Positions 13,901 through 33,466 of a stretch of 43,618 nt of DNA are shown piece by piece. The first letter of the stretch is position 1; every line of letters begins with the position of its first letter. A program made the position numbers and the translations under genes. The notes beneath the pieces were generated by a model. That model was not told where the DNA came from. It worked only from the letters and a program-made list of their open reading frames with translations, and ran no database searches. Origin of the DNA: a bacterium (lineage in GTDB: Bacteria > Bacillota > Clostridia > Lachnospirales > Lachnospiraceae); the NCBI GenBank assembly GCA_050874485.1, contig JBNMKT010000001.1:1-43618 (forward strand), written 5' to 3'.

Positions 13901-14187
13901 ATGTCTGCATACAAAGTCGAGATCTGCGGTGTCAACACTGCCAAACTCCCCGTACTCAAAGAAGATGAAAAAGATGCGCTGTTCGCGCGCATCCGCGAAG
14001 GTGATCCGCTTGCCAGAGAAGAATACATCAAAGGGAATCTGCGCCTTGTGCTCTCTATCATCCGGCGCTTTTCCGGCCATACAGACAACATCGATGATCT
14101 GTTTCAGATCGGCTGCATCGGGCTCATGAAATCGATCGATAATTTTGATCCAACACTTGGGGTCAAATTCTCGACCTATGCGGTGCC
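13901..14187 (+). CDS. sigG: RNA polymerase sporulation sigma factor SigG, 5' fragment (codons 1-96), interrupted
   Basis: KVEICGVNTAKLPVL N-terminus diagnostic of SigG; GNLRLVLS, DDLFQIGCIGLMKSIDNFD and KFSTYAVPMI. The reading frame then runs into element DNA and stops at 14218. Confidence 0.95.
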
Positions 14188-14210
14188 GATGATTGTACTT
14201 AGTCGAAACA
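14186..14210. other. attL junction
   Basis: CC-GATGATT followed by arm GTACTTAGTCGAAACA (14195-14210), which is the inverted complement (15/16) of the arm at 32952-32967. Confidence 0.9.
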
Positions 14211-14214
14211 ATGT

Positions 14215-15573
14215 CTAAAACTCCAGTTCAATATTGATACGTTCGTCAGTGATCACCACACGCCGGATGATCAGACGCAGGATCTCCTTCTTCTCATCCA
14301 ATGTCATATACTCCCACATATCCTTCAGATTTTCAAGCTTCTCATAGATAGCAGCCCGTTTGTCAGAAAGTGCCTTTCCGCGAACCTCATTTTCAATCTG
14401 CGCCTTGATACTCTCCAACTCCTTCTGATTTTCCTTGATCGTATCCAGCAGTAGATCATCGGCACTATCCGCGTACAGATCATACAGACGACGGATCTTC
14501 TTTGACACATTCGCGGCTCTGGCTTCCAGCATCTCAAGCGTAGAGGGCGCATTCGTCGAATCACTACTCTTGTTCGATACATCCATTTTCAGATTTAGGA
14601 TATGATCTACCACAATTTCTTCGACATCCTTCGCCCACAGCCTCGTCTGATCACAATCCGGATTTTTCACAAGATACGGCTTCGATGTCTGTTGGGAATA
14701 GCACACGAGCTTATGACCTTTCGTGCTCCACTTCTGATAGCGCATCTTCGCTCCGCATTTTCCACAGTAAACCAGTCCGGTAAGCAAGTTTTCGGTATAG
14801 TTGACCTTCTTCTTGGAGCGTTCCTCCATTTCCTGCATTGCCTTATAATAGGTTGCCTCGTCGATGATCGGCTCGTGCCGCCCCTTATACTCCTCACCAT
14901 TGTACTGAATAATACCAATATTGCTTTTTCTCTGCAAAATCTGCATCACCAGGCGCTCATATTTTAGACCAAGCGTATTCGCGATCTTTTGTGGAGACTG
15001 TCCGTCGATGTATAGCTTGTAGATCATGCGCACCTTCTCCGCGTCCTTATTCGGTACAAGGATACCCTGTTTTGAATCATAGTCATATCCATAGGGAATA
15101 CGACCGCCACCCATCCAATAGCCTTCCTTCACACGCTCTCGCATACCCATACGGGTTCTCATCCGGATGTTTTCTCGTTCCAACTGTGCAAAAGCAGCCA
15201 GTATTCCGATCATTGCGCGTCCCATCGGTGTTCCTGTATCTAACTGTTCTGTCAGAGAAACAAAATCCACACCATAAGGATCAAACAGATCCTCTATGAT
15301 ATATAAGACATCCTTCTGGGATCTCGACAATCGATCCAGCTTGTAAACAACGCACCGTTCCAATTTGCCGCCTTTGATATCGGCTATCATGTGTTGCATT
15401 TCTGGTCGGTCAATATTGCTGCCTGACCAGCCGCCGTCAATATAGAGTTCGTGGTTATCCCAACCATTGATCGTACACGCTGCCAGCAGCTTCTCTTTTT
15501 GCGCATCAATGGAATAGCCTTCCTCTGCCTGTGCATCTGTCGAAACTCGAATATATAATGCAGTTTTCTTCAT
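14215..15573 (-). CDS. Large serine recombinase (SpoIVCA/CisA-like integrase), 452 aa
   Basis: YIRVST catalytic Ser, DRLSR, GR...AQLERE, PYGY recombinase domain, CGKCG..C..C zinc ribbon and coiled coil. GGGAG RBS before ATG 15573. Stop lies 4 nt from the attL arm. Confidence 0.95.
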   Translation of the reverse strand: MKKTALYIRVSTDAQAEEGYSIDAQKEKLLAACTINGWDNHELYIDGGWSGSNIDRPEMQHMIADIKGGKLERCVVYKLDRLSRSQKDVLYIIEDLFDPYGVDFVSLTEQLDTGTPMGRAMIGILAAFAQLERENIRMRTRMGMRERVKEGYWMGGGRIPYGYDYDSKQGILVPNKDAEKVRMIYKLYIDGQSPQKIANTLGLKYERLVMQILQRKSNIGIIQYNGEEYKGRHEPIIDEATYYKAMQEMEERSKKKVNYTENLLTGLVYCGKCGAKMRYQKWSTKGHKLVCYSQQTSKPYLVKNPDCDQTRLWAKDVEEIVVDHILNLKMDVSNKSSDSTNAPSTLEMLEARAANVSKKIRRLYDLYADSADDLLLDTIKENQKELESIKAQIENEVRGKALSDKRAAIYEKLENLKDMWEYMTLDEKKEILRLIIRRVVITDERINIELEF

Positions 15574-15665
15574 TCTATCATATCTCTCCCTCTTATAATA
15601 GGAACTTTCCATCATTGTAGCAGATTCTTCTCCAGATTTCCACCTTCAATATATGGTTATTTTCT

Positions 15666-15674
15666 TTTGTCGAA
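15666..15674 (+). promoter_or_regulatory. Spo0A-box-like site upstream of the recombinase
   Basis: TTTGTCGAA (core TGNCGAA) about 95 nt upstream of the recombinase ATG. Confidence 0.35.
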
Positions 15675-15691
15675 ATTTTCCAAAAAAATGA

Positions 15692-15717
15692 AAAGGATGC
15701 TTGCCTGTGCATCCTTT
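15692..15717 (-). terminator. Intrinsic terminator insulating the recombinase from upstream genes
   Basis: AAAGGATGC-N8-GCATCCTTT stem with a T-rich tail on the minus strand. Confidence 0.7.
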
Positions 15718-15735
15718 CCATTTATACTAACATCT

Positions 15736-15918
15736 TTATGCTGCGTTCTGTGTATCAGCTTCCTCATGTTCCGCTCTCACACTACGCACTTTCCTTGGAG
15801 CTAGGACCGTACGTTTTAAAAATTGCACCGCCCGCTCTCCAAGCTCATATTGACCACTACGAACCAGTTCTGTAACATCCTCTCCACTTGCATTGGTTAT
15901 CGTTCCTATATGTACCAT
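15736..15918 (-). CDS. 60-aa protein, paralogue 1 (candidate recombination directionality factor)
   Basis: MVHIGTITNASGEDVTELVRSGQY is near-identical to the ORF at 30184-30366. Start lies 4 nt after the resolvase stop. Confidence 0.75.
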   Translation of the reverse strand: MVHIGTITNASGEDVTELVRSGQYELGERAVQFLKRTVLAPRKVRSVRAEHEEADTQNAA

Positions 15919-15922
15919 CCGA

Positions 15923-16552
15923 TCACACCCTTTCTTTATCTGACGTTTTCTGCAGTTCCCCTGCCAGCTTATAAAAAGACGATCGTTTTAGTCCCGTCAG
16001 CCGCATCGCCTCTCTTGCCGAAATTTGTCCATTTTTCCACTCATTGAGCACCACATCCAGATTTTCCGGTATGCTGACCCTTGGGCGTCCTAAATGCTTT
16101 CCTTTCTTCTTTGCCGCATCAATACCTTGCCGTTGCCGCTTTCTTATTGTAAGCCGCTCCTGTTCCGCGATGGATGCCAGCACTTCGATCAGGATATTGG
16201 TCACCATCTCCATGATCCACTCCTGTCCCTCCAGGACATCGATCAACGTAGTCGGTAGATCCAGTACCTTCAATCTGATCTTATGATCCCGGAACCACTG
16301 CAGTTCTCCCTTGATGTCCGCTTTGTTTCGACTTAATCTGTCAAGAGACATGACGTATAACGTATCTCCGGCGCGCAGCCCAAACAATCCTTTCAATGCC
16401 TGATAACCCGGACGCTCCAAATCCTTTCCGGAAGCCTTATCTACCACTATACAATCCTCCGGAACAAACTCGCTGAGTGCCAGTATCTGGCGGTCAAGGT
16501 TCTGCTCTGCAGAACTTACCCTTGCATATCCCATGATTCTCCCTGATTCCAA
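15923..16552 (-). CDS. Small serine resolvase/invertase with C-terminal HTH
   Basis: GYARVSS..QNLDRQ, DK.SG, DRLSR, RQRQGI..AK..G..LGRP and HTH tail. GGAGG RBS. Confidence 0.92.
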   Translation of the reverse strand: MESGRIMGYARVSSAEQNLDRQILALSEFVPEDCIVVDKASGKDLERPGYQALKGLFGLRAGDTLYVMSLDRLSRNKADIKGELQWFRDHKIRLKVLDLPTTLIDVLEGQEWIMEMVTNILIEVLASIAEQERLTIRKRQRQGIDAAKKKGKHLGRPRVSIPENLDVVLNEWKNGQISAREAMRLTGLKRSSFYKLAGELQKTSDKERV

Positions 16553-16570
16553 TAAAAATTCCTCCCTTAC

Positions 16571-16709: not shown

Positions 16710-17630
16710 TTACGCTGCGATCGAAAGTCCATCTTCCTTACTGTAATGGTAGATGTGATTGGAGAGCCTATCTTCCACCGACAACTGTATTTCATTAATG
16801 TCATGTACTACATCACACAGATATGGGAGATTTTTCACCTCTGAAACTGCCACCACCAGCGTCTCGTGAATTGATGAAGGGATAATATAGATATCTTCTC
16901 CTTTTCGATCCACGATCTGATCCATAACATCAGCAAATAACATGTACACAGCTCCAAAATGACACGCCTCATTCGTCAGCACATACAAAGGGTTGTTTAA
17001 CACCATCCGCTCATTACAAAGAAGCAGTTCCCGATCCCTTTCACTCAACATGCTGCTGATTGCATTTGTAATGCTCACAAAAGAGATATTCTCCTGTCTG
17101 GTATTCTGCAATGCAATCTCATAGACCGTCTCCTCGTCCTGTTCCCAGATTGCAAGATGCTCTTTTCTCACAATGACATAAGCTACTCCATCTCCGGAAG
17201 GGTGATCCATCTTCACATACACAACTGCCGACAGATCCAGATAGTCCCTATGGATTGCCGTATCCAGTGTTTCCCGGTTCATGTCCGCTGAGATCACCCG
17301 GAGATATAACCGGCTCTTTACGCGTTCCCAGTCCAGAAAATCATGGACTTCAATCTTTTTGATATTCTCATCCTCTGCATAATACAGCCAAATTGCCTGC
17401 ACAATTTCATCCAGCGTCATGTCATCCAGATATTCCTCATACAAAAGGTCTAAATAGAATACCGGTGATACCTTGCTGTCTGCCGACCGTATCACAATTC
17501 CTCTGCGCTTCAGACCGTTATTCTTATTCACCGTCTCTATACAGACATCGTCACCGTCACTCGCTGTCTGTCGCAGTCGTTTCAAAAGTTCCTCTTCAAA
17601 TGCCTCTCCTACTAATCGTGTTTCTTCCAT
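16710..17630 (-). CDS. DUF5688-family protein
   Basis: KNNG...GI, SP.FYL, LYVLTN...GA, YIIPSSIHE and ED.LSN.IY pattern. Confidence 0.75.
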   Translation of the reverse strand: MEETRLVGEAFEEELLKRLRQTASDGDDVCIETVNKNNGLKRRGIVIRSADSKVSPVFYLDLLYEEYLDDMTLDEIVQAIWLYYAEDENIKKIEVHDFLDWERVKSRLYLRVISADMNRETLDTAIHRDYLDLSAVVYVKMDHPSGDGVAYVIVRKEHLAIWEQDEETVYEIALQNTRQENISFVSITNAISSMLSERDRELLLCNERMVLNNPLYVLTNEACHFGAVYMLFADVMDQIVDRKGEDIYIIPSSIHETLVVAVSEVKNLPYLCDVVHDINEIQLSVEDRLSNHIYHYSKEDGLSIAA

Positions 17631-17642
17631 TGCCTTATCCTC

Positions 17643-18449
17643 CTATGCTGCCTGATTCTCATATACGATTTCATTTGCGATCTCGCTCATGTCTGCGCTG
17701 ATATTGGTCTTGATCGTCTCATCCGTGGATAATACACGCTGAAAGTCCGTTTTCAGCGGCGCGTACTTCAAAGCCTGCTTGATGACCGTTTTCTTTGCCA
17801 TCTCCTCATAGCAGGATTTCCACGGTGAGTAACTGCTCCCGAATGCCTTTGAATAGTTCGATGCATACAGATCCATCTCCTGTTTGCTCATGACACTAAA
17901 GCCGTAACCGCCATTCGATGTCTTGAACAGCCCATAGAAAAAAACCGACTCGCCACGATCAGCGATTTCCGGTCTGTGTATCAGCTTCGGGTTTAACCCG
18001 TATTCATATTCAAAATAGTCATTCTCATAAACAGTCTGTGCCTGTATCGTCTGCATCTGTCCATTACGGTATGCCAGTTCGATCAGCCCCTTGTAACCAA
18101 TCTGAAACTGACACTCCAGGACACCCTTATTCTTGTAAGGGATCAGATATGCCTGACCCAGCGGTGTGTTGGGTTCCAAACCAAGCTGCGCTGCATTTAA
18201 TAGGGCAGCAATAAAACTCATTGGCGTGCACTTCTGCAGTTCCGGTGTGTTGTTCAGCGCAGACAACGCAATCCTTGTAAAGCGCTCCGGTGTCATGACG
18301 CTAGGCAGGGCTTTCTTTAATTCCGGTCCAAGTGCTTTCACGATGTCCGGTATGGACGAGTTCTTTTTCAGCTTCACGCTGCTGTTTTCTGTCTTTGTAA
18401 CGGCAGCTGCCTGTGCCGCCAGTTCTTCCTTAATATCCTTCTGCTCCAT
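17643..18449 (-). CDS. recT: RecT-family single-strand annealing recombinase
   Basis: ERFTRIAL, CTP.SF..ALL.AAQLGLEPNTPLGQAYLIPY, FQIGYKGLI.LA.R and W...YEEMAKKTV. Confidence 0.93.
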   Translation of the reverse strand: MEQKDIKEELAAQAAAVTKTENSSVKLKKNSSIPDIVKALGPELKKALPSVMTPERFTRIALSALNNTPELQKCTPMSFIAALLNAAQLGLEPNTPLGQAYLIPYKNKGVLECQFQIGYKGLIELAYRNGQMQTIQAQTVYENDYFEYEYGLNPKLIHRPEIADRGESVFFYGLFKTSNGGYGFSVMSKQEMDLYASNYSKAFGSSYSPWKSCYEEMAKKTVIKQALKYAPLKTDFQRVLSTDETIKTNISADMSEIANEIVYENQAA

Positions 18450-18460
18450 GATAATCCTCC

Positions 18461-19396
18461 TTATGCTGCCGGTGCATACTTCACATTGAAGCGCCGGCTG
18501 GTAACTTCCTTTATATACTGGTCATAGATCTCTGGTTGCTCCTCTTTTAACCGCTTTGCATCAATACGGTTCTGATTTGCCTGTACCCATGAGATCCGGT
18601 AATCTTCTGCAACTGCATAACTCGCGTCCTGCATCTGCAGTTTAATCTTCTGATCGATCTGCTCTTTCTCCATTTCCAGCTTCTTCACAAGCTGTTCGAT
18701 CTCTGCCCTGCGTGACAGCTGCTCCTTCATGCCAAACAACTGGATCTCCTTTTTCTCGTCTCCGTGATAAAGTTGCAGTAGCATTTCAGAATATGCCTTG
18801 CTTCCGTCCGGATCAGGTGCAATGCCTTTCAACACATGATCTTCCCAGAACTGCTTTTCAATAATGATAAGGTTCTGTATCAGTTCCTCGTCACGCTCAA
18901 TCTTTCTTATGACAAATTCCCTGCCCATGATGAGCGCAGCCACATACCATGTCTTATAACCGGAAACCGCCAGATAATGCTGCACCTGCATTTGGTAATG
19001 AAGCGGCGTCTTTCCGTCGCTCCACTTATCAGCGGAATAAGCACTGACTGTCTTGCATTCCAGTCCGGCTTCTTCCCCTACGATCAGACGGTCAAAATCC
19101 GCTAACATGAACGGATGATCTTCATTCTGATAGACAGCGTTTGCCCTCCGTACCTTGAGTCCCGTTTCCTCTGTAAACCGCTTCGCTACATATTCTTCCA
19201 GATCGCGCCCCTGACGCATCGCCTCATTGTCAAAATTCTCCGTCTCCGCTGACAGCTTGTCATGGTAGACCTGAAAAGCGCTGCTATAGGGATTCATTCC
19301 GGTAATTGCACCGATGTCTGTGCCTGTCAGCCCCGTCTTTCGGATGCGGAGCCATTCTTCTTTTGGCAGATCCACGGTTGAAACTAGTCTTTTCAT
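18461..19396 (-). CDS. YqaJ-like (lambda exonuclease family) viral recombinase/exonuclease
   Basis: EWL..RK.GL.GTD, G..LE..VA..F, A.FDR, LECKT and Y..QVQHY.AV. Confidence 0.93.
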   Translation of the reverse strand: MKRLVSTVDLPKEEWLRIRKTGLTGTDIGAITGMNPYSSAFQVYHDKLSAETENFDNEAMRQGRDLEEYVAKRFTEETGLKVRRANAVYQNEDHPFMLADFDRLIVGEEAGLECKTVSAYSADKWSDGKTPLHYQMQVQHYLAVSGYKTWYVAALIMGREFVIRKIERDEELIQNLIIIEKQFWEDHVLKGIAPDPDGSKAYSEMLLQLYHGDEKKEIQLFGMKEQLSRRAEIEQLVKKLEMEKEQIDQKIKLQMQDASYAVAEDYRISWVQANQNRIDAKRLKEEQPEIYDQYIKEVTSRRFNVKYAPAA

Positions 19397-19397
19397 G

Positions 19398-19535
19398 TCA
19401 GATCATCCCTCCTTTTACGCATGGAATCATATCCGATATGAAGCGTGCCAAATCCTGTCTGAATATGGATACCAAGACGATAAGCACAGTCAATATCAAT
19501 ATAATCTCCACAGTTCCCAAGCCTCTGTTTTTCAT
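19398..19535 (-). CDS. 45-aa Flp1-like type IVb prepilin (not in ORF track)
   Basis: Hand translation MKNRG|LGTVEIILILTVLIVLVSIFRQDLARFISDMIPCVKGGMI. AGGAGG RBS, Gly(-1)/Glu(+5) and a hydrophobic helix. TGA lies 1 nt before the yqaJ ATG. Confidence 0.8.
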   Translation of the reverse strand: MKNRGLGTVEIILILTVLIVLVSIFRQDLARFISDMIPCVKGGMI

Positions 19536-19592
19536 TGTCTGTTTCCTCCTGCGGTACATTTGCCCCGCTTATAATGATCTCTGTTTTCATAG

Positions 19593-20519
19593 CTACGCCA
19601 CCATCTGATACGCACGGGCGATCATAGGATTCCCTTCCACCGTCTTGATGAACAGGTTTTCACTGTAATTCTTGGTGCGTCTGATCGGTTCTGCATGGGT
19701 AGCGAAATCAGATACTGCATTGATAAAACGGTACGCATTATTTCCTACGTGCTGCAGATCTGGAGCATCAAAGTAACGGCGCTTTAAGTCCTCCAAAAGC
19801 CTTCCGTTATTCTTCCGCTGGATGTCAGACTGCTCCACACTAAGCGGAAAGAAGGTCTGCATGTACTCGATCACCTTTTTGTCCGAGAGCTTCGTCTGAT
19901 TCAGTCGGTCGATCGTCCTTCCCAGCTCACTCATGTAACCATGTGCAAATAACAGCGTTTCCTTTGCGTCATCCATACGATCCATGATGTTTTCCGTATG
20001 CTTCGTCTGCCAAATCCGCTTTGCTGTCGATAAAGCAAGATTCAAAGTGTTGGAGCATACCACGCGTACCGGCGTCATACATACCTTAATAGAAGATGTA
20101 CCGTCATGTGAGTTCATGACCAGCAGATAGGGCGTGATCTTATCCCCTGCGATAATGTACTGTTCCGGTAGCTTGGCTAAAATCCATGTCCGCCTGCCGC
20201 CCTGCAGCGATCCAGCCGTCTCATACTTCACGCCAGCTCCCAGCAATTCATCCGTGAAGCGGAACGCATCGACATTCTGTACGACCTTGTAACGATCTGT
20301 CACAATGCCAAGCTGCTGAAAGTCTGAATCACGGTAGTTGAGCTTGTAACCCGGAATATAGAAACCTTCCTTTGTGTAGACATCCTTCTGTCTTACCTCC
20401 CAGTCCAGGCCTGCCACCTGCAGCGCAGTCTTTGAATCCGGTGCCTCACTCACCACGTTCCCCAGCCCATGCCAAGGTGTTGTTCTTGTCGAAAACATTG
20501 TCTCTACTTCATGTGCCAT
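19593..20519 (-). CDS. DUF932/DUF945-family phage/plasmid protein
   Basis: MAHEVETM..R..PWHGLG, AGLDW.V, Y..VQN, ETAGSL.GG, NSHDG, TPVRVVC.NTL and H. Confidence 0.88.
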   Translation of the reverse strand: MAHEVETMFSTRTTPWHGLGNVVSEAPDSKTALQVAGLDWEVRQKDVYTKEGFYIPGYKLNYRDSDFQQLGIVTDRYKVVQNVDAFRFTDELLGAGVKYETAGSLQGGRRTWILAKLPEQYIIAGDKITPYLLVMNSHDGTSSIKVCMTPVRVVCSNTLNLALSTAKRIWQTKHTENIMDRMDDAKETLLFAHGYMSELGRTIDRLNQTKLSDKKVIEYMQTFFPLSVEQSDIQRKNNGRLLEDLKRRYFDAPDLQHVGNNAYRFINAVSDFATHAEPIRRTKNYSENLFIKTVEGNPMIARAYQMVA

Positions 20520-21912: not shown

Positions 21913-22824
21913 TTAGTATAAGGATGTAAGAAAATCCTGCAAATTTTTATCCGTAGATGTCACAGATCCAGTTTCATGATCCCAGAACACAACATTCTTA
22001 TTTGCTAAAGAATAACAAATATAATTGCCAAACACAACCGTTTTAGAAGACTCCGACAACATTCTGTATGTAGCTGCTTTATGCTCCGGGTCGCGTGAAT
22101 TATTTGGTCCTGGAGTATCCACAAGCACTAACGAAACATCATCTGCCGTAACAAAAGGAATATTTCCTTCTACATGAACTCGAGACACCTCTGGATTACT
22201 ATTCAAACTATTCATTATATCAAAGGTCAGTTCCGGATGTGTCTGTATCAGATTTCCATCTGAATCGTACACCTTTGCTGTGAAATAGTCAGCATCATTA
22301 TCTTTGATTTCTGTAATGGTTGCAGTACATGCTTCTTGTTTTGCAGGCATTAACCGCTGTCTGAGAAGTGCATTGATTAATGTCGATTTTCCAGCACTCA
22401 TGGTAGCTACTACATTTACCTCGAAATCACTACTCTTTGCCAAATTAAATGCCTTAATAACATCCGGCTGTTTCAATTCTTCGAATGGTCCCGCCTGAAT
22501 TTCATCAAAGATCTCACTAATAGCAGCTTCCTTATCTGCAACTTCCTTTGCCGGAATATGTTCAAGCTCGATGTTTATATTTTTCTTTTTTGCATCCCGC
22601 GCCATTGCCTCGACATCTTCGTAATCTAGCGTGGTTCCCTGAAAGATAATTTTAAAATCGCGAACACTACATTCCTCAAATAGAATATCGGGCAAGTCTT
22701 CGATCCATTCCTGCAATCTTCGATCATAAAAATTCAACTGGCTGTTCTGCTTTGGAGCTACGCCATCAACTAAAACTTCTGTTTCCAAACGATACGGATT
22801 GTACTTAATTGAAATCTCTGTCAT
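21913..22824 (-). pseudogene. Truncated dynamin-like GTPase fused to a SMI1/KNR4-like C-terminal fragment
   Basis: ATMSAGKST (G1), ACTA (G2) and DTPG (G3) present; G4 NKxD and helical stalk absent. Tail FGNYICY...VVFWDHE...LQDFLTSLY. Confidence 0.7.
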
Positions 22825-22830
22825 TATTCA

Positions 22831-24153
22831 TCACCTCATATTGTAAATTATATTTTCCAGTTGCAATAAACCCGAATGTTTCAGCACCTGGTAACTTTTT
22901 TCTTCGTTATCAACTTGAACTGCTTTTTGAATATCTTCTGGATAATAACTATCAAACTGATATTCATTTTTCCTCATTTTCCTTGCCATTCTATCTAGTT
23001 CATCCAACTCATCTTCATTTAACTTTTCTCCAAAAATAGACATTTTGGCAAGATACGCCGCATATGCAGAAACAGGAGCTATATTCAATTCATCAAATCC
23101 TATTTCATGCAAATCAGCTACAATCTGTTTTAAACTGTCAGGAACAGAGTCATCTTTTCCGAACGTATCTAATTTATTTACTACAAAAATAATTTTACCA
23201 TGAAAGTTTTTCTGTACAAATAAAAGATGCTGCCTATCGTCTTCTGTTCCAAGACTTTCACCATTCATCAGATATATCAGTGCGTCCGCATCTGATGTAC
23301 TCAATGCATTCTCTGTGAGTTTTCTGTGATCCTTATTCTGTGCTGAATTAACCCCCGGTGTATCTATAAGCCACATTCTCTTCGGGGTTGTGCCAATTGT
23401 CCTAAATGAAACACCCACTTCTATCTCTGAACTATTATTGTCAACATTGTCATCCATTAAGGTATCATAATCAGCGTCCAATTCTAGAAGGTAATCATAC
23501 TCATAATATAAATTGTCTTCAAATGCCTTATTTTCAATATAATGCAACTTTGAAGTACAAGCAGCATGCTGTGTTTTGCTCACTTTTTTCCCAACTAACG
23601 CGTTTAACAGAGTCGACTTTCCGGCACTCATATTAGCAGTCACAATCACTTTTATAGGTTTTTCCTGCAAGAAATCTCGATTCTTATCCCAGCACTCTCT
23701 CATATAATCAATTTTATCAATGTTCTCTACCGATACTGAAGCATCGTATAAATACTCAAAAACCTGACGGATTTTCTTCTGATACCGCTTATGATAGATG
23801 ACTGAAAGTTCTTCATATATTTTTTCTCCTTTGTCCTGATCCATATAAGCATTCATAAAGATGCAATCAAAAACCAAACAGTATCTATATGAAAAAAATT
23901 TAAATGGTTTAAACTTTGTTGCAACCACACGTTTGGATTTCTTTTGTATATTATATGCTGTTGGAAGATCGACAGGTTCGCTTCCAACTAACTTTTGGTA
24001 ATACAAAAGCAATGTTTGCTTCGCCCACAAATCATCTTTTGAATACTTCTGAACAAAGTAGTTCAAAACATTTACATACCTCAGCCTATATTTTTCTTCC
24101 AATATAGGATGTTTTTCTAACATCTGCGATACTTCCAAATGCAAGTCATTCAT
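22831..24153 (-). CDS. Dynamin-like GTPase (440 aa)
   Basis: ANMSAGKST, ACTS, DTPG, NKLD and PVSA motifs. Confidence 0.85.
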   Translation of the reverse strand: MNDLHLEVSQMLEKHPILEEKYRLRYVNVLNYFVQKYSKDDLWAKQTLLLYYQKLVGSEPVDLPTAYNIQKKSKRVVATKFKPFKFFSYRYCLVFDCIFMNAYMDQDKGEKIYEELSVIYHKRYQKKIRQVFEYLYDASVSVENIDKIDYMRECWDKNRDFLQEKPIKVIVTANMSAGKSTLLNALVGKKVSKTQHAACTSKLHYIENKAFEDNLYYEYDYLLELDADYDTLMDDNVDNNSSEIEVGVSFRTIGTTPKRMWLIDTPGVNSAQNKDHRKLTENALSTSDADALIYLMNGESLGTEDDRQHLLFVQKNFHGKIIFVVNKLDTFGKDDSVPDSLKQIVADLHEIGFDELNIAPVSAYAAYLAKMSIFGEKLNEDELDELDRMARKMRKNEYQFDSYYPEDIQKAVQVDNEEKSYQVLKHSGLLQLENIIYNMR

Positions 24154-24250
24154 AAAATCCTTCCTCCATACAAGTCATTCTCATATTTTTTCATATGCCG
24201 GAGCCCTCATCATACATATATGTCATTTATACATCAGGCTTTGACTTCTT

Positions 24251-25210
24251 TTAGTTTATAAACTCAACATTATTTCCCTGACTTCTAAACCACATATCTA
24301 TTCCGTCTCCAAACACCTCCGCTCTTATAATATAAGCACCATTATCTTCTTCAACAATCTCTGCTGTAGGCAGTTTATCCAAAACAGCTTCCACCGATAA
24401 GCCGGTATAGCGAAATTTCACTTTCCGTAGCTTACCACCATACATAAACTGTATCCGTTTTCTAAATTCTCCCTCTTCAAAACGATTCGCATAAGGCACT
24501 CGATAGTGTTCATCGGTCACCTTTACATCTATTATCCGATCAATCCGATAAATTGTAGGAAAGGAATCGTTTAAAACATCAAAGTCTGCCCTTGTTGCTT
24601 CATCGTCAATAAATGCCGTCATGTAGAAATAAAACTCAGAAAACATGATTGCAGCAGGCATAACTTTACGATTCACAACCTTTTTGTCCTTCAAGCGCAT
24701 ATATGAAATCTCAATGTACTGATGTTGCTGAATTGCTTGACCGATCAACCACATCTTGTTAATAAACACCGATTTGTGTCTTGGCTCTACATAATGGTAC
24801 TCTTCATTGCAGATCAAGTCTTTCACTAATTTTTGATTTTCTTTCGGCACACAACAATCAAGTAACTTGTCCAACATAGCGACCATTTCTTTTTTGGTAA
24901 ACGCTCTGCTATCCAAAAGGATTTTACAAATAGCAAGAATTTCTGCATTACTAAATTTCAATTGATACAGCTGTCCTAACCGGAAACCTTTTTTTGCACG
25001 ATCATAGACCACAGAATTTACAATGCCACTGTCCACCACCGCTTTATCTAAAAACTTACGAATATCATCAATATCTCTCTGAATCGTCCGTTCATTCACG
25101 CCATAGTTATTGGCTTCCTCTGCTTTTTGGATAACAGCTCCATTCAAAAGTTTCGTGTATAGATCAAGCACTCGTTCTGTTTTATCTGATGTACCCTGCT
25201 CAACTGCCAT
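24251..25210 (-). CDS. WYL-domain transcriptional regulator (wHTH-WYL-WCX)
   Basis: N-terminal HTH GVNERTIQRDIDDIR, FSEFYFYM (WYL-equivalent), YRIDRI and C-terminal W..SQG. Confidence 0.92.
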   Translation of the reverse strand: MAVEQGTSDKTERVLDLYTKLLNGAVIQKAEEANNYGVNERTIQRDIDDIRKFLDKAVVDSGIVNSVVYDRAKKGFRLGQLYQLKFSNAEILAICKILLDSRAFTKKEMVAMLDKLLDCCVPKENQKLVKDLICNEEYHYVEPRHKSVFINKMWLIGQAIQQHQYIEISYMRLKDKKVVNRKVMPAAIMFSEFYFYMTAFIDDEATRADFDVLNDSFPTIYRIDRIIDVKVTDEHYRVPYANRFEEGEFRKRIQFMYGGKLRKVKFRYTGLSVEAVLDKLPTAEIVEEDNGAYIIRAEVFGDGIDMWFRSQGNNVEFIN

Positions 25211-25241
25211 TTAATCACTCCTGTCTTTAAAAATTTATCCT

Positions 25242-25273
25242 ATTTTACCAAACAGCAATGACACATCCTGTCA
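25242..25273 (-). promoter_or_regulatory. Box promoter 3, upstream of the WYL gene
   Basis: TGACACATCCTGTCA at 25259-25273; 11 nt; TGG-TAAAAT extended -10 at 25242-25247. Confidence 0.8.
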
Positions 25274-25621
25274 CACATCAAAATTTTCTTCATTTACTTT
25301 ACTTAGATAAAGCAATTATACTCTTTAAACAATTCTATATCAATATTTTTGTGCATAATATTCATTTTTCTTCATTATTTCCTATCTTTTTAACAATTTC
25401 CTTTTCGTCCAGTGCTTTAGAACAATTATAAGTATCCACGCATACACATAGACAGCTCGAATCTTTCTCTTGTCCCCATTTCTCATATTTTCTATTTTAC
25501 AACAAATTTTCGTTGCCGCAACTATTAGCATAAGCAAATACTGCTTTCCGCTTATTATTCTCTTTTGATAACTCTTGTATTATTTTCATATACTATGAGT
25601 TGTATTTGGAGGTTACCGACT

Positions 25622-25954
25622 ATGGACTATGTCTTTCTTGGGAAACGTATCCGCGAGGAGCGCTTACGGTTAAATCTAACGCAGGAAAAGCTGGCAGAAG
25701 CCTGTGGCATTTCCACCGCATATCTGGGACAGATTGAACGCGGCGAGCGTTGCATCACCCTTGATAAGCTGATCCCACTGGCAAACTGTTTGGGAACTAC
25801 GATTGATTTTCTTCTCTCAGATTACATCAACCCCCAGAACGACACTAACTTTAATATTCTCTTTCAGCTATTTCAAGGTAAGAGCGATCAGGAAAAGGAG
25901 CTTGCCATTCAACTGCTCAAACTTCTCTTTTCATATACAGATGGACGTCTCTAA
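25622..25954 (+). CDS. XRE-family HTH transcriptional regulator
   Basis: LGKRIREER...LTQEKLAE.CGIS..YLGQIERGER. GGAGG precedes ATG 25622. Confidence 0.9.
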   Translation: MDYVFLGKRIREERLRLNLTQEKLAEACGISTAYLGQIERGERCITLDKLIPLANCLGTTIDFLLSDYINPQNDTNFNILFQLFQGKSDQEKELAIQLLKLLFSYTDGRL

Positions 25955-27195: not shown

Positions 27196-27420
27196 TTATG
27201 CAGCATATTCTACAATTGCAACTTCTGTCAGGGCTTCTTTTAACTTTTTTACAATCTCCTCAATTCGTGCGACAACCTCTCCACTATAAGAGACTTCTCC
27301 GCACTGGCTACATTTATGGCATGGCACATGCTTAATAATAATAAAATGTCCATCCAAGTCCACCATGTAATTGCAGAAATCATCTTTCATTTCACCTTTA
27401 CAATAAAAACATTTATCCAT
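27196..27420 (-). CDS. YgiT/MqsA-type zinc-finger protein (putative antitoxin)
   Basis: C..CKG...IIIK.VPC.KC.QCGE pattern, directly downstream of a DUF4258-like gene. Confidence 0.85.
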   Translation of the reverse strand: MDKCFYCKGEMKDDFCNYMVDLDGHFIIIKHVPCHKCSQCGEVSYSGEVVARIEEIVKKLKEALTEVAIVEYAA

Positions 27421-27424
27421 GCAA

Positions 27425-27733
27425 TCATTCCTTCCTCTTTTTTAATTCTTCATCCCATTGAGATGGATCCGGTTCATACGCTGTAATTAGCCATAGCTTA
27501 TGTTCTCCAATACCTACAACTACATGCAGTTTTCGTTCGTGAATCGTCATCCCCAAGATCAAACAGCTTGGATATGGATAATCATCGGGATATTCCTCAA
27601 TAATTTCCCCGTTTTTTATTACTTCCTTAATTTCCTCATACGAAATATTCCGCTGCTGACATCTCATCAGAATATGCTGTGTTACCTCGATCGTTGCATC
27701 TCTGCACAATAATTTAATCTGATCTATGTCCAT
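27425..27733 (-). CDS. DUF4258-family protein (putative RelE-like toxin)
   Basis: T.H...R...R.I, GEIIEEYPDDYPYPSCLILG, LHVV and ITAYEP...W. Confidence 0.85.
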   Translation of the reverse strand: MDIDQIKLLCRDATIEVTQHILMRCQQRNISYEEIKEVIKNGEIIEEYPDDYPYPSCLILGMTIHERKLHVVVGIGEHKLWLITAYEPDPSQWDEELKKRKE

Positions 27734-27922
27734 GTAGTACCATCTCCCCTCGCAGCTTATATTTTCTCCATTAATATTATACCCTCTCCGTCCAAATTTG
27801 TACACACCTTTTGCTCCTGATCCGAATATCGCAATACATATGTTTCATTGCCCCTTATTTAACGTGGTCGACATTTCTAAACATTCATTTAAATAAACCA
27901 AAATCCAAGGGGGGGATTTATA

Positions 27923-28139: not shown

Positions 28140-28763
28140 CTACTCTCCCTTCTTTCCCTGTTCAAGTAATGCCTGGTATTGAGGATCTGTTTTTCTGAAA
28201 CAGTTCGCATTCTTAAATGTCACAGGAGACCTTTGTGCATAATTTCCCAAAATCTGATCAAACTGGTTATTCCTTGCCACTCGTTCTTCGTTTGTTTGAT
28301 GAAATTTCTTACCATCAACATAACTAACGCTGTTTCCAGCAAAATGTACATGCATAAATGAACTATCCGTTTTTTCCTTAGGTCTTGTCAAATGTGTTGC
28401 CGCAATAACTTGATATCCCATATCATAAAATTCTCGTCCCATTTCTTCAAATGCCATTACTACTAAACTTGGATTGCAGCCAACCTGACAAAATGCTTCT
28501 TCTTTAATCGAATACTGCATATGGAAAGCTCTCCTTCCACCTCTGGAATCTATATTATATACTCTCTGAATTTGATTCACCAGTTCAATCTGTTTAGCAA
28601 GGCTGTCATCATTATCTATACCATAACTTCTATAACTTACTAAATCAGTAGCATCTCTCTTATCTCTACAACAATACTTTGCGACTTTTTCAAAAGCATC
28701 TTTATTTCCATAGGCGCCTTTCTTATGATTCGAAATATTTATAAGCATTCCTTCAATTGACAT
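28140..28763 (-). CDS. Short relaxase/mobilization nuclease (HUH)
   Basis: N-terminal Tyr helix, AFH...S, YQVIAATH......HVHFAGNSVS..DGKK. Confidence 0.8.
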   Translation of the reverse strand: MSIEGMLINISNHKKGAYGNKDAFEKVAKYCCRDKRDATDLVSYRSYGIDNDDSLAKQIELVNQIQRVYNIDSRGGRRAFHMQYSIKEEAFCQVGCNPSLVVMAFEEMGREFYDMGYQVIAATHLTRPKEKTDSSFMHVHFAGNSVSYVDGKKFHQTNEERVARNNQFDQILGNYAQRSPVTFKNANCFRKTDPQYQALLEQGKKGE

Positions 28764-28993
28764 ACAATCCCTCCAATCTGTTGTTTTAATTCCGGTAAAT
28801 CATTGCACATCTGCGTAAGCTGCACGCAAAGCCGCGCTGTCATCTGTTGCTTACGCTTGTTTGTTATCCTTTTAGGAATACAGCAAGTCTCTATGTAATC
28901 TCCAACAGACATGCCATTCTCTTTTGCATGATCACTAATCGCTTGCTTTGTGATCTGTGAACATCGAAACTCTACCTTACTGTCTTTTGACAT
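28739..28993 (-). CDS. MobC-like ribbon-helix-helix accessory protein
   Basis: KVEFRCS...K..I...A...GMSV.DYI pattern. Overlaps the relaxase start. AGGAGG RBS. Confidence 0.65.
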   Translation of the reverse strand: MSKDSKVEFRCSQITKQAISDHAKENGMSVGDYIETCCIPKRITNKRKQQMTARLCVQLTQMCNDLPELKQQIGGIVCQLKECL

Positions 28994-29356
28994 CCATTTG
29001 ACCCTCCTTGTCATTTTGGGGATTCTATGAGAAGTTTGAATATATGTATAAATATAATTTCTTTATCATAATATACTTTCTATTTGTCATATTTCTTTAT
29101 TTCTGTATATTCTCTATTTTCAAGAATACCTTTTTCAGAATTACATATCTTTGATTTATATATATAACAAGTATACCTTTTGTCGGACATTTCTTCTTTC
29201 CCGATCAAAGCATCCCTCATTACAGAAGCCCTCCTTTGCATTTTTACTTATAGTATTGTTTATTCTATCCCTTCACGCTTTGTATTTGCCCACTTCTTAT
29301 CGTATAATACCGAAAAAGAAAGGTGTGCATCTCTGCCCACCTTCTCGCGGCCTGTT

Positions 29357-29761
29357 TTACACAGACATCACACATTTTTCGTTATAATACGGTATCAGTG
29401 AATCATGTGTCACAAATACCATTCCTTCTACCTTTGCCTGGGCTATAAGCAGCCGATCAAAAGGATCATTATGTCGCGGAGCATCTTCCGGTCTCACCAA
29501 AGTTTTGATCTTGTAGATATGCTCTGCAGCAATAGGCAACTGATGCAAGCCTGCTTCCACACATAATTCCACAAACGCTTCCTCTGATACAGGCATTTCC
29601 TCCGGTCGGATCTTATGCTTAATTGCGATCTCCCAAACCGAAGCCATGCTATAATACACCGTATTCCCGGATGATTTCAATGCTGCCACAACCTTATCCG
29701 GTAATTTTTCCGGAGCTGTGAATGCCCACAAGGCAATATGCGTATCTAATAACAGCTTCAT
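29357..29761 (-). CDS. PIN-domain (VapC-type) toxin
   Basis: LLDTH..LW, S.ASVWEIAIK, H.DPFDRLLIAQA and T.D. Confidence 0.92.
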   Translation of the reverse strand: MKLLLDTHIALWAFTAPEKLPDKVVAALKSSGNTVYYSMASVWEIAIKHKIRPEEMPVSEEAFVELCVEAGLHQLPIAAEHIYKIKTLVRPEDAPRHNDPFDRLLIAQAKVEGMVFVTHDSLIPYYNEKCVMSV

Positions 29762-30033
29762 CCTTCACTTGCCCCAAACATTTCTGCAATTTCATCATTA
29801 GCGCCATCAATATCGTCCGGTAACTGATACTTCCCTTTTGCAAGCCCCAGCTTAACGCCCGTATCCGGTACGGTCAGATGTATGGTAAACGGCATAGCTT
29901 TGTCCTGTACGCTCTGCTTTGCGAAGATACGCACCGCCTCTGCAAAAGATGTCCCCATGTTCTTATAAAGGCTCTCCACCTGTTCTTTGAGATCAGCGTC
30001 CATTCTCACTTGTAACGTAGCTTCTTTTGCCAT
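29758..30033 (-). CDS. RelB/DinJ-type antitoxin
   Basis: LQVRMD..LK......Y..MG....EAVRIF..Q.V....MPF. ATGA overlap with the toxin start. Confidence 0.85.
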   Translation of the reverse strand: MAKEATLQVRMDADLKEQVESLYKNMGTSFAEAVRIFAKQSVQDKAMPFTIHLTVPDTGVKLGLAKGKYQLPDDIDGANDEIAEMFGASEG

Positions 30034-30051
30034 GAGATCCCCTCCTTTTTT

Positions 30052-30069
30052 GTAATACAATTGTACTAC
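30052..30069. promoter_or_regulatory. Putative TA operator palindrome
   Basis: GTAATACAATTGTACTAC (perfect core TACAATTGTA) just upstream of the antitoxin RBS, overlapping a TACAAT -10. Confidence 0.6.
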
Positions 30070-30172: not shown

Positions 30173-30183
30173 CCATGCTTGTC

Positions 30184-30366
30184 TTATGCACTTACCTTTG
30201 TATCCGTCCCTAAATGATCGCCGTTGGCAGCCTGCTCCTTACGACTTGCCTGTAGCACACGGTTCAAATAGTCGTTTGCCCTGTCACTCAAAGCATACTG
30301 CCCGCTCTTGACTAATTCCGTGACATCTTCTCCTGCTGCATTCGTAATCATACCAAGATGTACCAT
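30184..30366 (-). CDS. 60-aa protein, paralogue 2 (candidate recombination directionality factor)
   Basis: MVHLGMITNAAGEDVTELVKSGQY. GGAG RBS. Preceded by a perfect dyad AATCATGTA-GTTA-TACATGATT (30379-30400). Confidence 0.75.
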   Translation of the reverse strand: MVHLGMITNAAGEDVTELVKSGQYALSDRANDYLNRVLQASRKEQAANGDHLGTDTKVSA

Positions 30367-30419
30367 CAATATCACTCCAATCATGTAGTTATACATGATT
30401 GTTGCCGGAATGATATTTT

Positions 30420-32219
30420 TTAATCATCATCTCGATATATGTATACTGTTCCCCCGTATTTCTTTTTCATTTTATACGGAATACCCAAATGTTTCATAAG
30501 CCCATTAAACATTTCCGCTCCATATATCTGACCTTCCTTGGCCTTGGCTTTTTTATACAAACGAGATCTTGCAGATTCTATAGTAATATCTTTCCCTCTC
30601 GCTTTTCCTAGAAAAAGATCTCCATCATCATTTTCAATCAAATCAAATAATGCAGTCCTTATCAAATTAAAACCTTCAATAGCTTCTTCTTTTGATACCC
30701 CTTCTTTCGGGAACTGACATAAATATGATTCTATAATATTTCTGCATTCCTTATAATGATCCTCCAAATATTCATTTACAATTTTGTTCGTTTCATCTTC
30801 TCGGTTCAACCACGACAACTGAATACGAACAAAAGCCCATTTATCTTTTTCCAACTCAGCATCTAATTTTTCATAAAGTGCTTTCAAATAATCAAGTTGA
30901 GCAATACTCAGGTCACTTTTCACAACATTTAAAGCATCATCAATATAGCAAACACTTTTTACAGTTTTATACACCTGATTCGATTTAAGCATCATTTCTA
31001 TTAATTTGCATTGCATTTGCTGAGGAACTTTTTTATTAAACGTAGCAACAACACCAAAGTCGTTATCAAAAAATTGGAGTGCCTTATTCACCTTTTTCAA
31101 TTTTTTTGAAAAAGAATTATGTTCTCCAATCGGTATATACAAATGTACATTCTCATAACTCTCTGTCCTAATTCTGCCTAAACACTGTAAAAATTCTATT
31201 TTATTATCAGCAAATATAACAATATTGTTTCTATCCTCTACCACCGACACGCCACAATCTAATACGTATGTCAAAATACATACCTTATATGAACCTTTTC
31301 GTTGTTCCACAAAACGATCAACTTCTTTATGTGCTTCCGGATCATGTCTGTACTGCGCATCAATAAAAATACTTTTTATCTGTTTCTTTTTCAAAGCCCT
31401 ATCAAGTGCACTTCCCTTTTTCTTGTCATCAACAAAAACCATCCATTTTTTTGACTTTTGCATTAAAATCATATCTTGTAAGTCTTGATAAGTTTTAAAC
31501 AGATGGATATTTAAACCCATATATTTATTCTTTATATCCAACGTATACGTATGTGGCTTAACAAATGTATTTCGTTCCATGCACATACGTTTCAAATTAT
31601 TAGCACAATACTGCTCTATATTCTCCATCGTGGCAGACATGAATATCATTGTATATCCGCAATGAATCGGGAATGCCTTCAACTTATTGTGAAACAACAA
31701 ATTTACAAATGACAATTCTGTAGATGGGTTAAAAAGCGAGTCAGACATAAAGTAATGAGCCTCATCCATCACAATATAGGAGCAAGAATTATATATATTT
31801 AACAGTCTCTGATAAGTAGCAGGACTTGAAACAACCGATTGGCATATCTGTTCAAAGCGTTGATATGTCACTACTATAAGATTGTCTTTTATATTTTGGT
31901 CTAAAGCCCCCCCTCTTCGCAACTTTGATTCCACTCCACATATATCCGCATCTAGTTGCATCTTCAATATTTTTCTATTAACGAGATACAATATCTTCTG
32001 ACCACGTGAAATAGCCCAAGGCAACAATTGATTAAGGACAAATGTTGTTTTCCCAGACCCAGTCGGAGCTGAAATAAAAATAGCATCATTTTCTTTCCAT
32101 TTTTTATAATCATCCCCTATTTGTTCAGTAACTGTCATGATTTTATTATCAGCTTTCTTCTGATCAATTTCGTATTCTTGAATACAGCCAATGGCTTTTT
32201 CATTTTGTACATACATCAC
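30420..32219 (-). CDS. Superfamily 2 DEAD/DEAH-box helicase-like protein
   Basis: APTGSGKT (motif I), DEAH (II), MSAT (III), T.VLD.GV (V) and Q.LGRIR (VI). Confidence 0.88.
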   Translation of the reverse strand: MMYVQNEKAIGCIQEYEIDQKKADNKIMTVTEQIGDDYKKWKENDAIFISAPTGSGKTTFVLNQLLPWAISRGQKILYLVNRKILKMQLDADICGVESKLRRGGALDQNIKDNLIVVTYQRFEQICQSVVSSPATYQRLLNIYNSCSYIVMDEAHYFMSDSLFNPSTELSFVNLLFHNKLKAFPIHCGYTMIFMSATMENIEQYCANNLKRMCMERNTFVKPHTYTLDIKNKYMGLNIHLFKTYQDLQDMILMQKSKKWMVFVDDKKKGSALDRALKKKQIKSIFIDAQYRHDPEAHKEVDRFVEQRKGSYKVCILTYVLDCGVSVVEDRNNIVIFADNKIEFLQCLGRIRTESYENVHLYIPIGEHNSFSKKLKKVNKALQFFDNDFGVVATFNKKVPQQMQCKLIEMMLKSNQVYKTVKSVCYIDDALNVVKSDLSIAQLDYLKALYEKLDAELEKDKWAFVRIQLSWLNREDETNKIVNEYLEDHYKECRNIIESYLCQFPKEGVSKEEAIEGFNLIRTALFDLIENDDGDLFLGKARGKDITIESARSRLYKKAKAKEGQIYGAEMFNGLMKHLGIPYKMKKKYGGTVYIYRDDD

Positions 32220-32303
32220 TCACGCATCTCCAATATAAGAAAAATAATAATTATATATATTTTCCTATTTTCTATTTTATCAGAAGCTTTTTATAATGCC
32301 AAC

Positions 32304-32930
32304 CTATTTTTTTATTATACGTTCAAATATCTCTGCAAATCCTTTATTCAAGCCATTTAAGTGGCTTTCGTCAATCTTCTTACAAGTATCTATCGATACC
32401 TTCAATTTATGCTTCATATCTAATCCAGCAAGTTTTTGCATTTCAATATAGGAAAAAACTTTAAGTATATTTCCTAAAGTTTTCGTACTCGGACTGCCCT
32501 CTCTCCGCATCTTATTATACTCTTCCTCAGTCACATAGGCTCCGCCCTTCATCGCCAGATACTGCTCTTTGAAGTCTGCCAGCCATTCAAAGGGACTCTT
32601 ACCGTTATATCTGCCCCGGTAGATGTATTCTCGATCAGGATAGTGTTCATCCATCCACTGATTAACCGAAGTGACCTTGAATCGGTTTTTAATCGTTGAC
32701 AGTGAGGGCAACTCCCTGTACTTATTAAAGTCATTCAGATTCGGCAGCCGACCATTGTGATCAATCCGGAACTGCTCAATCGCATCGAAGATGGCAGCCT
32801 CTGTCCATAAAACACCGGGCGTTTCCTGTTTCATATCCTCCAGCAGCTGCATCAGCTCCTCTTGGTATTCAAATTCCGGCAGTTGTGCTATAATCTCCTT
32901 AGCAATTATCAATGCTTGTCTTCTAGTCAT
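32304..32930 (-). CDS. Putative DNA-binding protein with two homing-endonuclease-associated-repeat-like units
   Basis: WTEAAIFDAIEQF...GRLP...DF.....LPS..TIKNRF and a second ...EEEYNK.R..GSPS..T unit. GGAGGT RBS before ATG 32930. Confidence 0.55.
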   Translation of the reverse strand: MTRRQALIIAKEIIAQLPEFEYQEELMQLLEDMKQETPGVLWTEAAIFDAIEQFRIDHNGRLPNLNDFNKYRELPSLSTIKNRFKVTSVNQWMDEHYPDREYIYRGRYNGKSPFEWLADFKEQYLAMKGGAYVTEEEYNKMRREGSPSTKTLGNILKVFSYIEMQKLAGLDMKHKLKVSIDTCKKIDESHLNGLNKGFAEIFERIIKK

Positions 32931-32951
32931 GTCAAAACCTCCATATTTGGC

Positions 32952-32983
32952 TGTTTCGACCAAGTACGTTCATTCCAATGATT
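32952..32983. other. attR junction
   Basis: Arm TGTTTCGACCAAGTAC (32952-32967), 7 nt, CC (32975-32976), then AATGATT continuing into sigG. Confidence 0.9.
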
Positions 32984-33466
32984 ATCGGTGAAGTGCGCCG
33001 CTATCTGCGCGACAACAGCAGTATCCGCGTCTCCAGATCACTGCGGGATACCGCCTACAAAGCGATCCACGCCAAGGAGCAGCTCATGAACCGCACGCAG
33101 GAGGAGCCGACCATTGAGGAAATTGCTGCTGAATCCGGCCTGACCAAGGAGGAGATCGTCTATGCCCTCGATGCGATCCAGAGCCCGGTCAGCCTCTATG
33201 GTCCGGTCTACACAGACGGCGGCGATACGCTCTATGTCATGGATCAGATCGCAGACAAGAAAAACAAAGAATCCCGCTGGATCGAGTCGCTCTCTCTATC
33301 TGATGCGATGGAGCGGCTCGGTGAGCGGGAGAATTATATCATAAAATTACGTTTCTTTGAGGGCAAGACACAGATGGAAGTGGCCCAGGAGATCCACATC
33401 TCACAGGCGCAGGTATCCAGACTCGAAAAATCCGCCCTGAATCATATGAAAAATTATCTGAAATAG
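32977..33466 (+). CDS. sigG: RNA polymerase sporulation sigma factor SigG, 3' fragment (codons 97-258)
   Basis: MIIGEVRRYLRDN..IRVSRSLRD, ALDAIQ.PVSL, DGGD..YVMDQI and GKTQMEVA.EI.ISQAQVSRLEK. Continues exactly from ...STYAVP. Confidence 0.95.

Follow-up and report, generated by a model that had tools for sequence, protein, structure and literature searches.

Mother-cell genes are the targets of the developmentally excised elements of the sporulation literature, namely skin, SPbeta, vfbin, vrin, and gin; the passages that treat this point (PMC4191935; PMC5595907; PMC5025042) explain that such elements survive and stay in the spore because they leave only the chromosome of the mother cell, a cell that dies. 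Here, we describe an element that breaks this rule. Together with the two pieces of sigG that it separates, it occupies positions 13901..33466 of a window of 43,618 nt (the whole stretch of contig JBNMKT010000001.1 that was analysed), and its target encodes the sigma factor that acts in the forespore. We consider it probable that this is a mobilisable element seated in a conserved proline codon of the only sigG found in this gut bacterium, and that it serves a reversible, sigma-F-timed rearrangement of the germ-line cell, with excision in the forespore and re-integration at outgrowth.

The closest described systems are the skin elements in sigK of C. difficile (with the large serine recombinase CD1231 and the directionality factor CD1234; PMC5025042) and of B. 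subtilis (with SpoIVCA). As far as the available text describes them, they share with the window a large serine recombinase at the element's edge and a sporulation sigma factor that is split precisely and in frame, along with a vegetative-type recombinase promoter and a small, separately controlled gene as the likely timer. The skin timer is under sigma-E/SpoIIID control, whereas the small gene in the window has a sigma-F-type site. Moreover, skin has a mother-cell target, while here the target is forespore SigG (or, in some relatives, SigF), so that the rearranged chromosome is inherited and loss of the element is not free; the clade of the window also has inversion and megabase layouts, unlike skin. 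The element works like skin in its chemistry and is not a member of that class by target or compartment. An earlier, sequence-only reading of the window had called it “skin-like”, which is apt for the serine-recombinase chemistry and the in-frame sigma-factor split, and had itself noted that a forespore target implies a different logic from that of skin; the paradox to which that reading pointed, that SigG acts in the compartment whose chromosome is inherited, holds.

A serine recombinase likewise reconstitutes a developmental gene in the case of SPbeta in spsM (SprA/SprB; PMC4191935) and of gin in gerE (GirC/GirX; PMC5595907), and gin, like the window element, is free of phage genes. In the sections concerned, excision of SPbeta is described as confined to the mother cell, with the element kept in the spore genome, and gerE as a mother-cell regulator, whereas it is the spore compartment that requires sigG. 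Reversible active lysogeny (Listeria phi10403S in comK and S. pyogenes SpyCIM1; PMC13492144) offers a parallel, on the account given in part of a 2026 review, to the gene switch that we predict here, in which the element would excise, persist as an episome, and re-integrate. It differs in that the window element has no phage structural genes and that its trigger would be a compartment-specific sigma factor. The sporulation cases are treated in the same part of that review as irreversible and belonging to the mother cell (PMC13492144).

No paper on a split sigG was found in the literature searched, the scope of which excluded subscription papers (among them Abe 2013). Among 180 Firmicute genomes surveyed in one study, sigK, cotJC, and spoIIID are reported as split and, in its accessible portion, no split sigG is given, a point on which its supplements may bear; the portions of Durrant et al. 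that could be consulted, including a term search of 8 supplements, make no mention of sigG, and PMC5812530 has no passage of relevance.

The split sigG and its attachment sites

The 5' half of sigG (codons 1-96; 13901..14188, plus strand) has a stop-free translation ending STYAVP, and the 3' half (codons 97-258; 32978..33466, plus strand) comprises 162 stop-free codons starting MIIGEVRR. The NCBIfam SigG model NF006071 and TIGR02850 are the top matches of both halves, which fall on NF006071 profile positions 1-96 and 97-257 with neither gap nor overlap, bearing out the codon ranges and the in-frame join claimed by the sequence-only reading. The intact sigG of a congener (G013) is 98% and 99% identical to the two halves. 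The element cuts the gene at the CC of a proline codon (YAVP/MIIGE), and precise removal of the intervening 18,789 bp restores the frame. Its attachment (att) sites, attL (14161..14212, plus strand; crossover CC at 14186-14187, element arm 14188-14212) and attR (32950..33000, plus strand; CC at 32975-32976, element arm 32950-32974), have the central dinucleotide CC in common, as expected of a large serine integrase. Brought together as attP, the element-side arms form an inverted repeat around this CC with 19/25 matches, against a maximum of 17/25 among 200,000 random CC pairs drawn from the element. The rejoined junction predicted earlier from the letters agrees with this crossover. In addition, the GC content is 41.2% in the element and 48.1% and 49.1% in the flanks.

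Contigs of sequencing run X1, which may be the source run, bridge both junctions (14092-16629 and 26926-33007), and runs X2-X4 of the same study also contain the element (X5 and X6 yielded only short or divergent pieces and were unused). Homologous att junctions occur in two congeneric genomes. Near-full-length sigG is listed in 14 of the 22 congeners; all 8 of those fetched have the same flanking genes around an intact sigG, and in G020 the junction is also intact, in a sigG that spans two contigs. Because X1 contigs bridge both junctions, and congeners have homologous att junctions and the same flanks, misassembly of the locus, which the sequence-only reading had raised as a danger, is very unlikely. 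A second, intact sigG, another danger that it had raised, was not found in the assembly of the window's genome (G000; 93.02% complete, 257 contigs). The other sigma-factor matches in this assembly are sigF, sigE, sigK (its frame intact), sigA, and one further sigma factor.

The recombinase clade and the layouts of its targets

The recombinase (452 aa; 14215..15573, minus strand) has its 3' end at attL and an ATG preceded by a Shine-Dalgarno (SD) sequence, with the frame open to 15615. Its Resolvase, Recombinase, and Zn-ribbon domains, its catalytic RVST motif, and its unbroken frame agree with the earlier claim that an intact large serine recombinase lies within the 18,789 bp between the halves. 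By sequence comparison, it is a member of a Clostridia-wide clade tied to forespore sigma genes. At a cut-off of E<=1e-90, the recombinase was found in 13 of 400 family genomes (each at least 90% complete), and in all 13 a forespore sigma gene is split at this codon: sigG in 9 and sigF in 4, the latter four having an intact sigG. An alignment search of GTDB genomes gave more than 565 candidates, the best 80 of which come from Lachnospiraceae, Oscillospiraceae, Butyricicoccaceae, Peptococcaceae, and Defluviitaleaceae; a sigG half is present in 53 of these 80 loci, no half in 27, and an intact junction in none. (Two of these loci duplicate genomes already sampled; one was left out of the trees and both are included in the 80- and 93-locus counts.) Whole-genome checks of 15 further carriers, picked from the 80 loci for their long contigs, found a full sigG in none, both halves in 13, and one half in 2. 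The survey for split sigG near a serine recombinase that the sequence-only reading had called for therefore gives, over all 28 carriers checked, a split sigG in 24 and a split sigF in 4. All breaks examined share this CC, and in all 30 scorable pairs the arms match each other at 11-21 of 25 positions. Most family members have an intact sigG, with splits in at least 9 of 269 sigG-bearing genomes; G200 first seemed split and proved intact on inspection, and G320, where the break falls at a contig end, was not counted. A single-protein locus search with the recombinase returned no matches, unlike the alignment search, and an Atlas search gave no match.

Relatives in IMG/VR are phages. The 79 viral loci there include two phage groups in which attR with the sigG 3' half (6 loci) and free attP (12 loci) are both seen, the two forms sharing only CC, which again fits the predicted junction. 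Since integrated and free-attP forms occur in the same phage groups, the clade contains active integrases with their attB in sigG. Two individual records were also noted: MT839977.1 (L259), filed as a phage, holds a recombinase and a sigG 3' half, and PP511791.1 (L260; Dulem virus 39) holds a clade recombinase, a small open reading frame (ORF), and an attP-like site. As for sigF, 4 genomes, each from a different genus, have it interrupted at the homologous codon (L135/L136, that is G263:C23:78666-162834, along with L034, L035, and L037), and the recombinases of these four splits are near-identical.

The halves lie in several layouts. Direct, excision-type layouts are found in G000 (18.8 kb), G178 (2.5 kb), G315 (45 kb), L051 (2.55 kb), L054 (14.7 kb), L071 and L073 (6.4 kb), and, for sigF, in G263 (84 kb). 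Inverted layouts, each on a single contig, are found in four genomes, all four assembled in the split state: G024 (2.4 kb, with the recombinase just outside the segment), the closed genome G363 (49.6 kb, with the recombinase ~0.86 Mb away), and G351 (26 kb) and G417 (41 kb), where the recombinase is on another contig among host genes. In G363, G351, and G417, the DNA between the inverted halves includes ftsZ, the dcw cluster, spoIIGA-sigE, and gltX, and these three segments have a common boundary gene. In a quick tree, the source of all recombinase supports given here, the recombinases of these three and of G087 form one clade (SH-aLRT 99), and that of G024 groups with the sigF-targeting enzymes. 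In the closed genome G441 (L157/L158; G441:C1:2248855 and 29551), the halves are direct and ~1.03 Mb apart, with arms matching at 15/25, and recombination would split the chromosome into two circles. At the other extreme, the 2.55 kb of L051:8836-11388 carry tRNA-Thr(GGT), tRNA-Trp(CCA), and the recombinase module, and this tRNA-Trp is the only one found in that metagenome-assembled genome. Because a spore cannot discard ftsZ, gltX, or the only tRNA-Trp found, rejoining in these relatives, if it occurs, must be reversible; in the inverted or far-apart, domesticated relatives, the same chemistry would amount to a reversible inversion or a chromosome split.

A candidate forespore switch and its rivals

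In light of this clade, what might time the rejoining of sigG? A conserved family of ~50-aa ORFs adjoins the recombinase in 66 of 93 loci. Gibbs sampling of 56 non-redundant regions upstream of these clade small ORFs, taken from other genomes only, yielded a motif of G-x-x-T, 15 nt, and GG[C/T]xAxA[A/C]T, with a median of 13.8 bits against 1.4 for shuffles when measured on the training set itself. When the 3,206 ORFs of G000 are ranked by this motif, a 60-aa ORF of the element (30184..30366, minus strand) comes 1st, spoIIR 2nd, sigG 13th, and spoVAD 22nd, and a matrix retrained on 45 rows (the 11 identifiable Lachnospiraceae rows being dropped) ranks the same genes 1, 2, 7, and 41. The promoter-like site of the element ORF (30398..30427, minus strand, overlapping the stop codon of a helicase-like gene) scores 17.4 bits, or 16.3 bits with the retrained matrix, and that of sigG (13831..13860, plus strand) scores 12.9 bits. 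Across sigG upstream regions the median is 9.3 bits, with at least 10 bits in 13/34, against a median of 2.1 for G000 ORFs; among held-out small ORFs of sigG-type loci, 12/15 reach at least 10 bits (L112, G363, and G024 fall below), against a background of 2.1% of genome ORFs. An upstream G in the -10 is a mark of sigma-F, and spoIIR is expressed in the forespore, according to the relevant passages of one study (PMC3789822); the motif ranks spoIIR and sigG together and is in that sense of forespore type. Because it places the element ORF first alongside these two genes, the promoter of this ORF suggests sigma-F-timed excision in the forespore. In the three sigF-splitting elements scored, the small ORFs reach only 3.6-9.8 bits, as would be expected if a split sigF is not repairable under sigma-F; as their small ORF has no good sigma-F site, the sigF-splitting elements must need a different timer. 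The matrix finds no forespore promoter site before the recombinase itself, where a generic sigma-70 scan, otherwise uninformative, gives one sigma-70-type site with a TG (15642-15614, minus strand).

By its promoter and size, ORF 30184-30366 is a candidate recombination directionality factor, a class described, in the part of the source that covers it, as being without shared sequence motifs (PMC12286644). The predicted structures of this ORF and of a clade small ORF (pLDDT 68 vs 84) both consist of a hairpin, a short helix, and a long helix. For the clade small ORF there is no PHROG, PDB-sequence, or Foldseek match; for the window small ORFs only 5 outside homologs were found (one further match being a repeat artefact), none of them in the 22 congeners. 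Our first candidate for the factor, the 60-aa ORF directly upstream of the recombinase (15736..15918, minus strand; a 53%-identical paralog of ORF 30184-30366), has no forespore promoter site (rank 2790/3,206) and was rejected.

The mechanism that we propose would run as follows. The recombinase would be made from its vegetative-type promoter and, alone, would favour attB x attP integration. After asymmetric division, sigma-F would transcribe both ORF 30184-30366, acting as the directionality factor, and the sigG promoter, the 18,789-bp circle would leave, and sigG would be rejoined in the forespore only. As the forespore does not divide, the circle would stay in the spore, and at outgrowth, with the factor gone, the recombinase would re-insert the element; two toxin-antitoxin pairs would penalise cured progeny. 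With about even confidence, we extend this to many gut Clostridia, in which sigma-G would be gated by a programmed, reversible rearrangement of the germ line: forespore sigma-F would switch on a directionality factor, and a phage-derived serine integrase would rejoin sigG by excision of an element, by inversion of a stretch of essential host DNA 2-50 kb long (on which the enzyme would act from elsewhere), or by a chromosome split at sites ~1 Mb apart, each being undone at outgrowth. The window would then represent the still-mobile stage of a series that has phages at one end and domesticated inversion switches at the other. [quoted passage not shown] The clade is also a rich natural source of integrases together with their att sites and directionality factors, with named isolates among the carriers: Flavonifractor porci P01024 (6.4-kb direct segment), Butyricicoccus sp. 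Marseille-Q5471, and Agathobaculum spp.

Several observations weigh against this proposal. On the promoter matrix, G363 and G024, both of the inversion type, reach no more than 4.9 and 6.9 bits, and in C. difficile the promoters of sigma-F and sigma-G overlap, according to the section that compares them (PMC7438776). Neither an HMM nor hhalign (probability of 0.13-0.17%, no higher than for shuffles) detects homology of ORF 30184-30366 to the clade small ORF. In the genus, att junctions are present in 3 of 19 sigG-bearing genomes, the carriers are not sisters, and the sigG of G000 is sister to the intact allele of G018 (one-clade test, p-AU 0.0495); given this patchy, non-sister distribution, post-insertion selection on the halves of the window strain cannot be shown. 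Codon 171 of the window SigG is Gly, against D/E in 65 of 65 other loci (position 33201 is G in the window and A, giving Asp, in X1 and X2 contigs). In a further genome with a split sigG, that of Agathobaculum hominis M2 (G439), spoVT is also in pieces. Finally, no attP junction of the window element was seen in the assembled contigs of any run, and neither excision nor sporulation was observed. The search for the rejoined junction that the sequence-only reading had proposed gave, on these contigs, one X4 contig (211 nt, depth 3.9), from a run that also has the element, in which 14188 is linked to 32978 and the 3' side is free of mismatches. It reads CCG/ATG, where CC-core excision of the window allele predicts CCA/ATG; because the third proline position is G rather than A, an element-free strain would explain it as well, and the rejoined sigG may come from such a strain. 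A fork at 32978 in X1, taken at first for attB, proved to be the attR of a related element. This second element at the same attR (window 32782-33007) has 19 differences in 226 nt and a depth of 3.2.

The best-surviving alternative, which we nevertheless regard as unlikely, is that excision is one-way, in the forespore or before division, so that the element is lost, element-free lineages arise, and persistence depends on horizontal re-entry into an empty sigG only. It would account for the patchy, non-monophyletic presence in the genus, the relaxase of the element, the near-identity of the sigF-group recombinases across 4 genera, and the joint occurrence of intact and attR forms in X4 and in G005. 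The G005 assembly has an intact sigG and an attR that are identical over 117 nt, which reflects either excision or a mix of strains; G005 and G016, whose contigs end at or inside the element, yielded no match to the recombinase. One-way excision is inapplicable where the intervening DNA has ftsZ, gltX, or the only tRNA-Trp found, it sits poorly with the split state of all four assembled inversion-type genomes, and serine integrases integrate without a directionality factor, as stated in the portion of the skin study consulted (PMC5025042).

Next, and improbable in our view, the insertion may be parasitic docking, in which case carriers would in effect be unable to sporulate, excision would be no more than a rare or damage-induced part of mobility, and the promoter match would be a coincidence. 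The lack of a detected excision product of the window element, the private Gly171, the split spoVT of G439, and the intact sigG of most family members are all in its favour. It has to contend with low dN/dS among split-only lineages: values among split halves are at most 0.13 where computable, like those of intact pairs, and 0.006-0.072 among 7 Butyricicoccaceae (saturated pairs, printed as 0.000, are excluded). Likewise, the sigG and recombinase groupings are congruent for the inversion group and for the 9 sampled Butyricicoccaceae, which group together in both trees (having been sampled via the recombinase), the promoter motif, which puts the element ORF in first place, is shared by several families, and of 5 genomes tested 4 have intact sigma-G target genes (SASP, spoIVA, and spoVT in G000, G363, G024, and G441). 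That the halves work without any DNA rearrangement, as separate polypeptides or by RNA joining, or are an assembly artefact, is very improbable: the 3' half does have an initial ATG, and the 5' half can be read as an open frame of 105 aa, its read-through ending at 14218, against which there is no SD before 32978, the break lies inside sigma region 2 (the Sigma70_r2 profile stops at 54/71), the att dyads are conserved in all scorable pairs, and both the window junctions and the four inverted layouts are spanned by single contigs.

With regard to sporulation genes elsewhere, at L263:2289-4553 and L263:2298-2747 and at L264 (G439:C6:4797-5246 and 37538-37639), the two pieces of spoVT, a forespore gene, lie ~32 kb apart in G439, and a 755-aa ORF that resembles a serine recombinase by its N-terminal motif adjoins the 3' piece. 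Three congeners (G007, G012, and G022; 97-99% complete) have only a sigA-type match, with no sigF or sigG at E<=1e-25, and have likely lost sporulation within the genus.

Other genes of the element and its flank

Beyond the upstream 60-aa ORF, the left part of the element holds a small serine resolvase (15923..16552, minus strand; PF00239) and, by profile scans, a set of recombination or leading-region cargo (16710..20519, minus strand) comprising DUF5688, RecT, a YqaJ exonuclease, a 65-aa ORF, and DUF932. Defence-like cargo follows (21913..25954), with two dynamin-like GTPases, a WYL protein, and an HTH regulator; the dynamin-like ORF 21913-22824 ends in a short SUKH-like stretch and appears truncated or fused, and its neighbour is LeoA-like. 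The first toxin-antitoxin pair (27196..27805, minus strand) combines a DUF4258 toxin with an MqsA/YgiT-type antitoxin-like protein that falls below the Pfam cut-off, and the second is a PIN toxin with a RelB antitoxin (29357..30060, minus strand; profile scan). Between them lie a relaxase and a NikA/MobC-like mobilisation protein (28140..29014, minus strand; profile scans), the relaxase matching PF03432 at 34.2 bits against a cut-off of 24.6 in a protein of only 207 aa. Pfam scans of the element ORFs gave no matches to conjugation machinery or a type IV secretion system, and Pfam and PHROGs scans of those submitted gave no phage structural genes. By its gene content, the element is of a phage-gene-free mobilisable type and not a prophage. 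Having an integrase and a relaxase without conjugation genes, it is what we take to be an integrative mobilisable element, a class whose Firmicutes members presumably match it in their serine integrase, relaxase and MobC-like gene, toxin-antitoxin pairs, defence cargo, and absence of conjugation machinery. It differs from that class in docking in a developmental regulator and in having a forespore promoter site.

To the right of the second pair, a terminator-like hairpin (30173-30144, minus strand) follows ORF 30184-30366, and a DEAD/ResIII-type helicase-like protein (30420..32219, minus strand) has a homolog at the same place in G005. The last ORF before attR (208 aa; 32304..32930, minus strand) is of no known family. 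In 6 bacterial loci a homolog lies beside the att site on the side away from the recombinase, and in 5 viral loci one comes after attP; on the excised circle, the window ORF would directly follow the recombinase. Outside the element, spoIIGA, sigE, and a metallo-hydrolase gene (33485-36699) are convergent to sigG and lie 18 bp from its stop. No terminator-like site was found in this 18-bp gap, and read-through from the spoIIGA-sigE side could cross the sigG 3' half in antisense and reach the right-end genes of the element.

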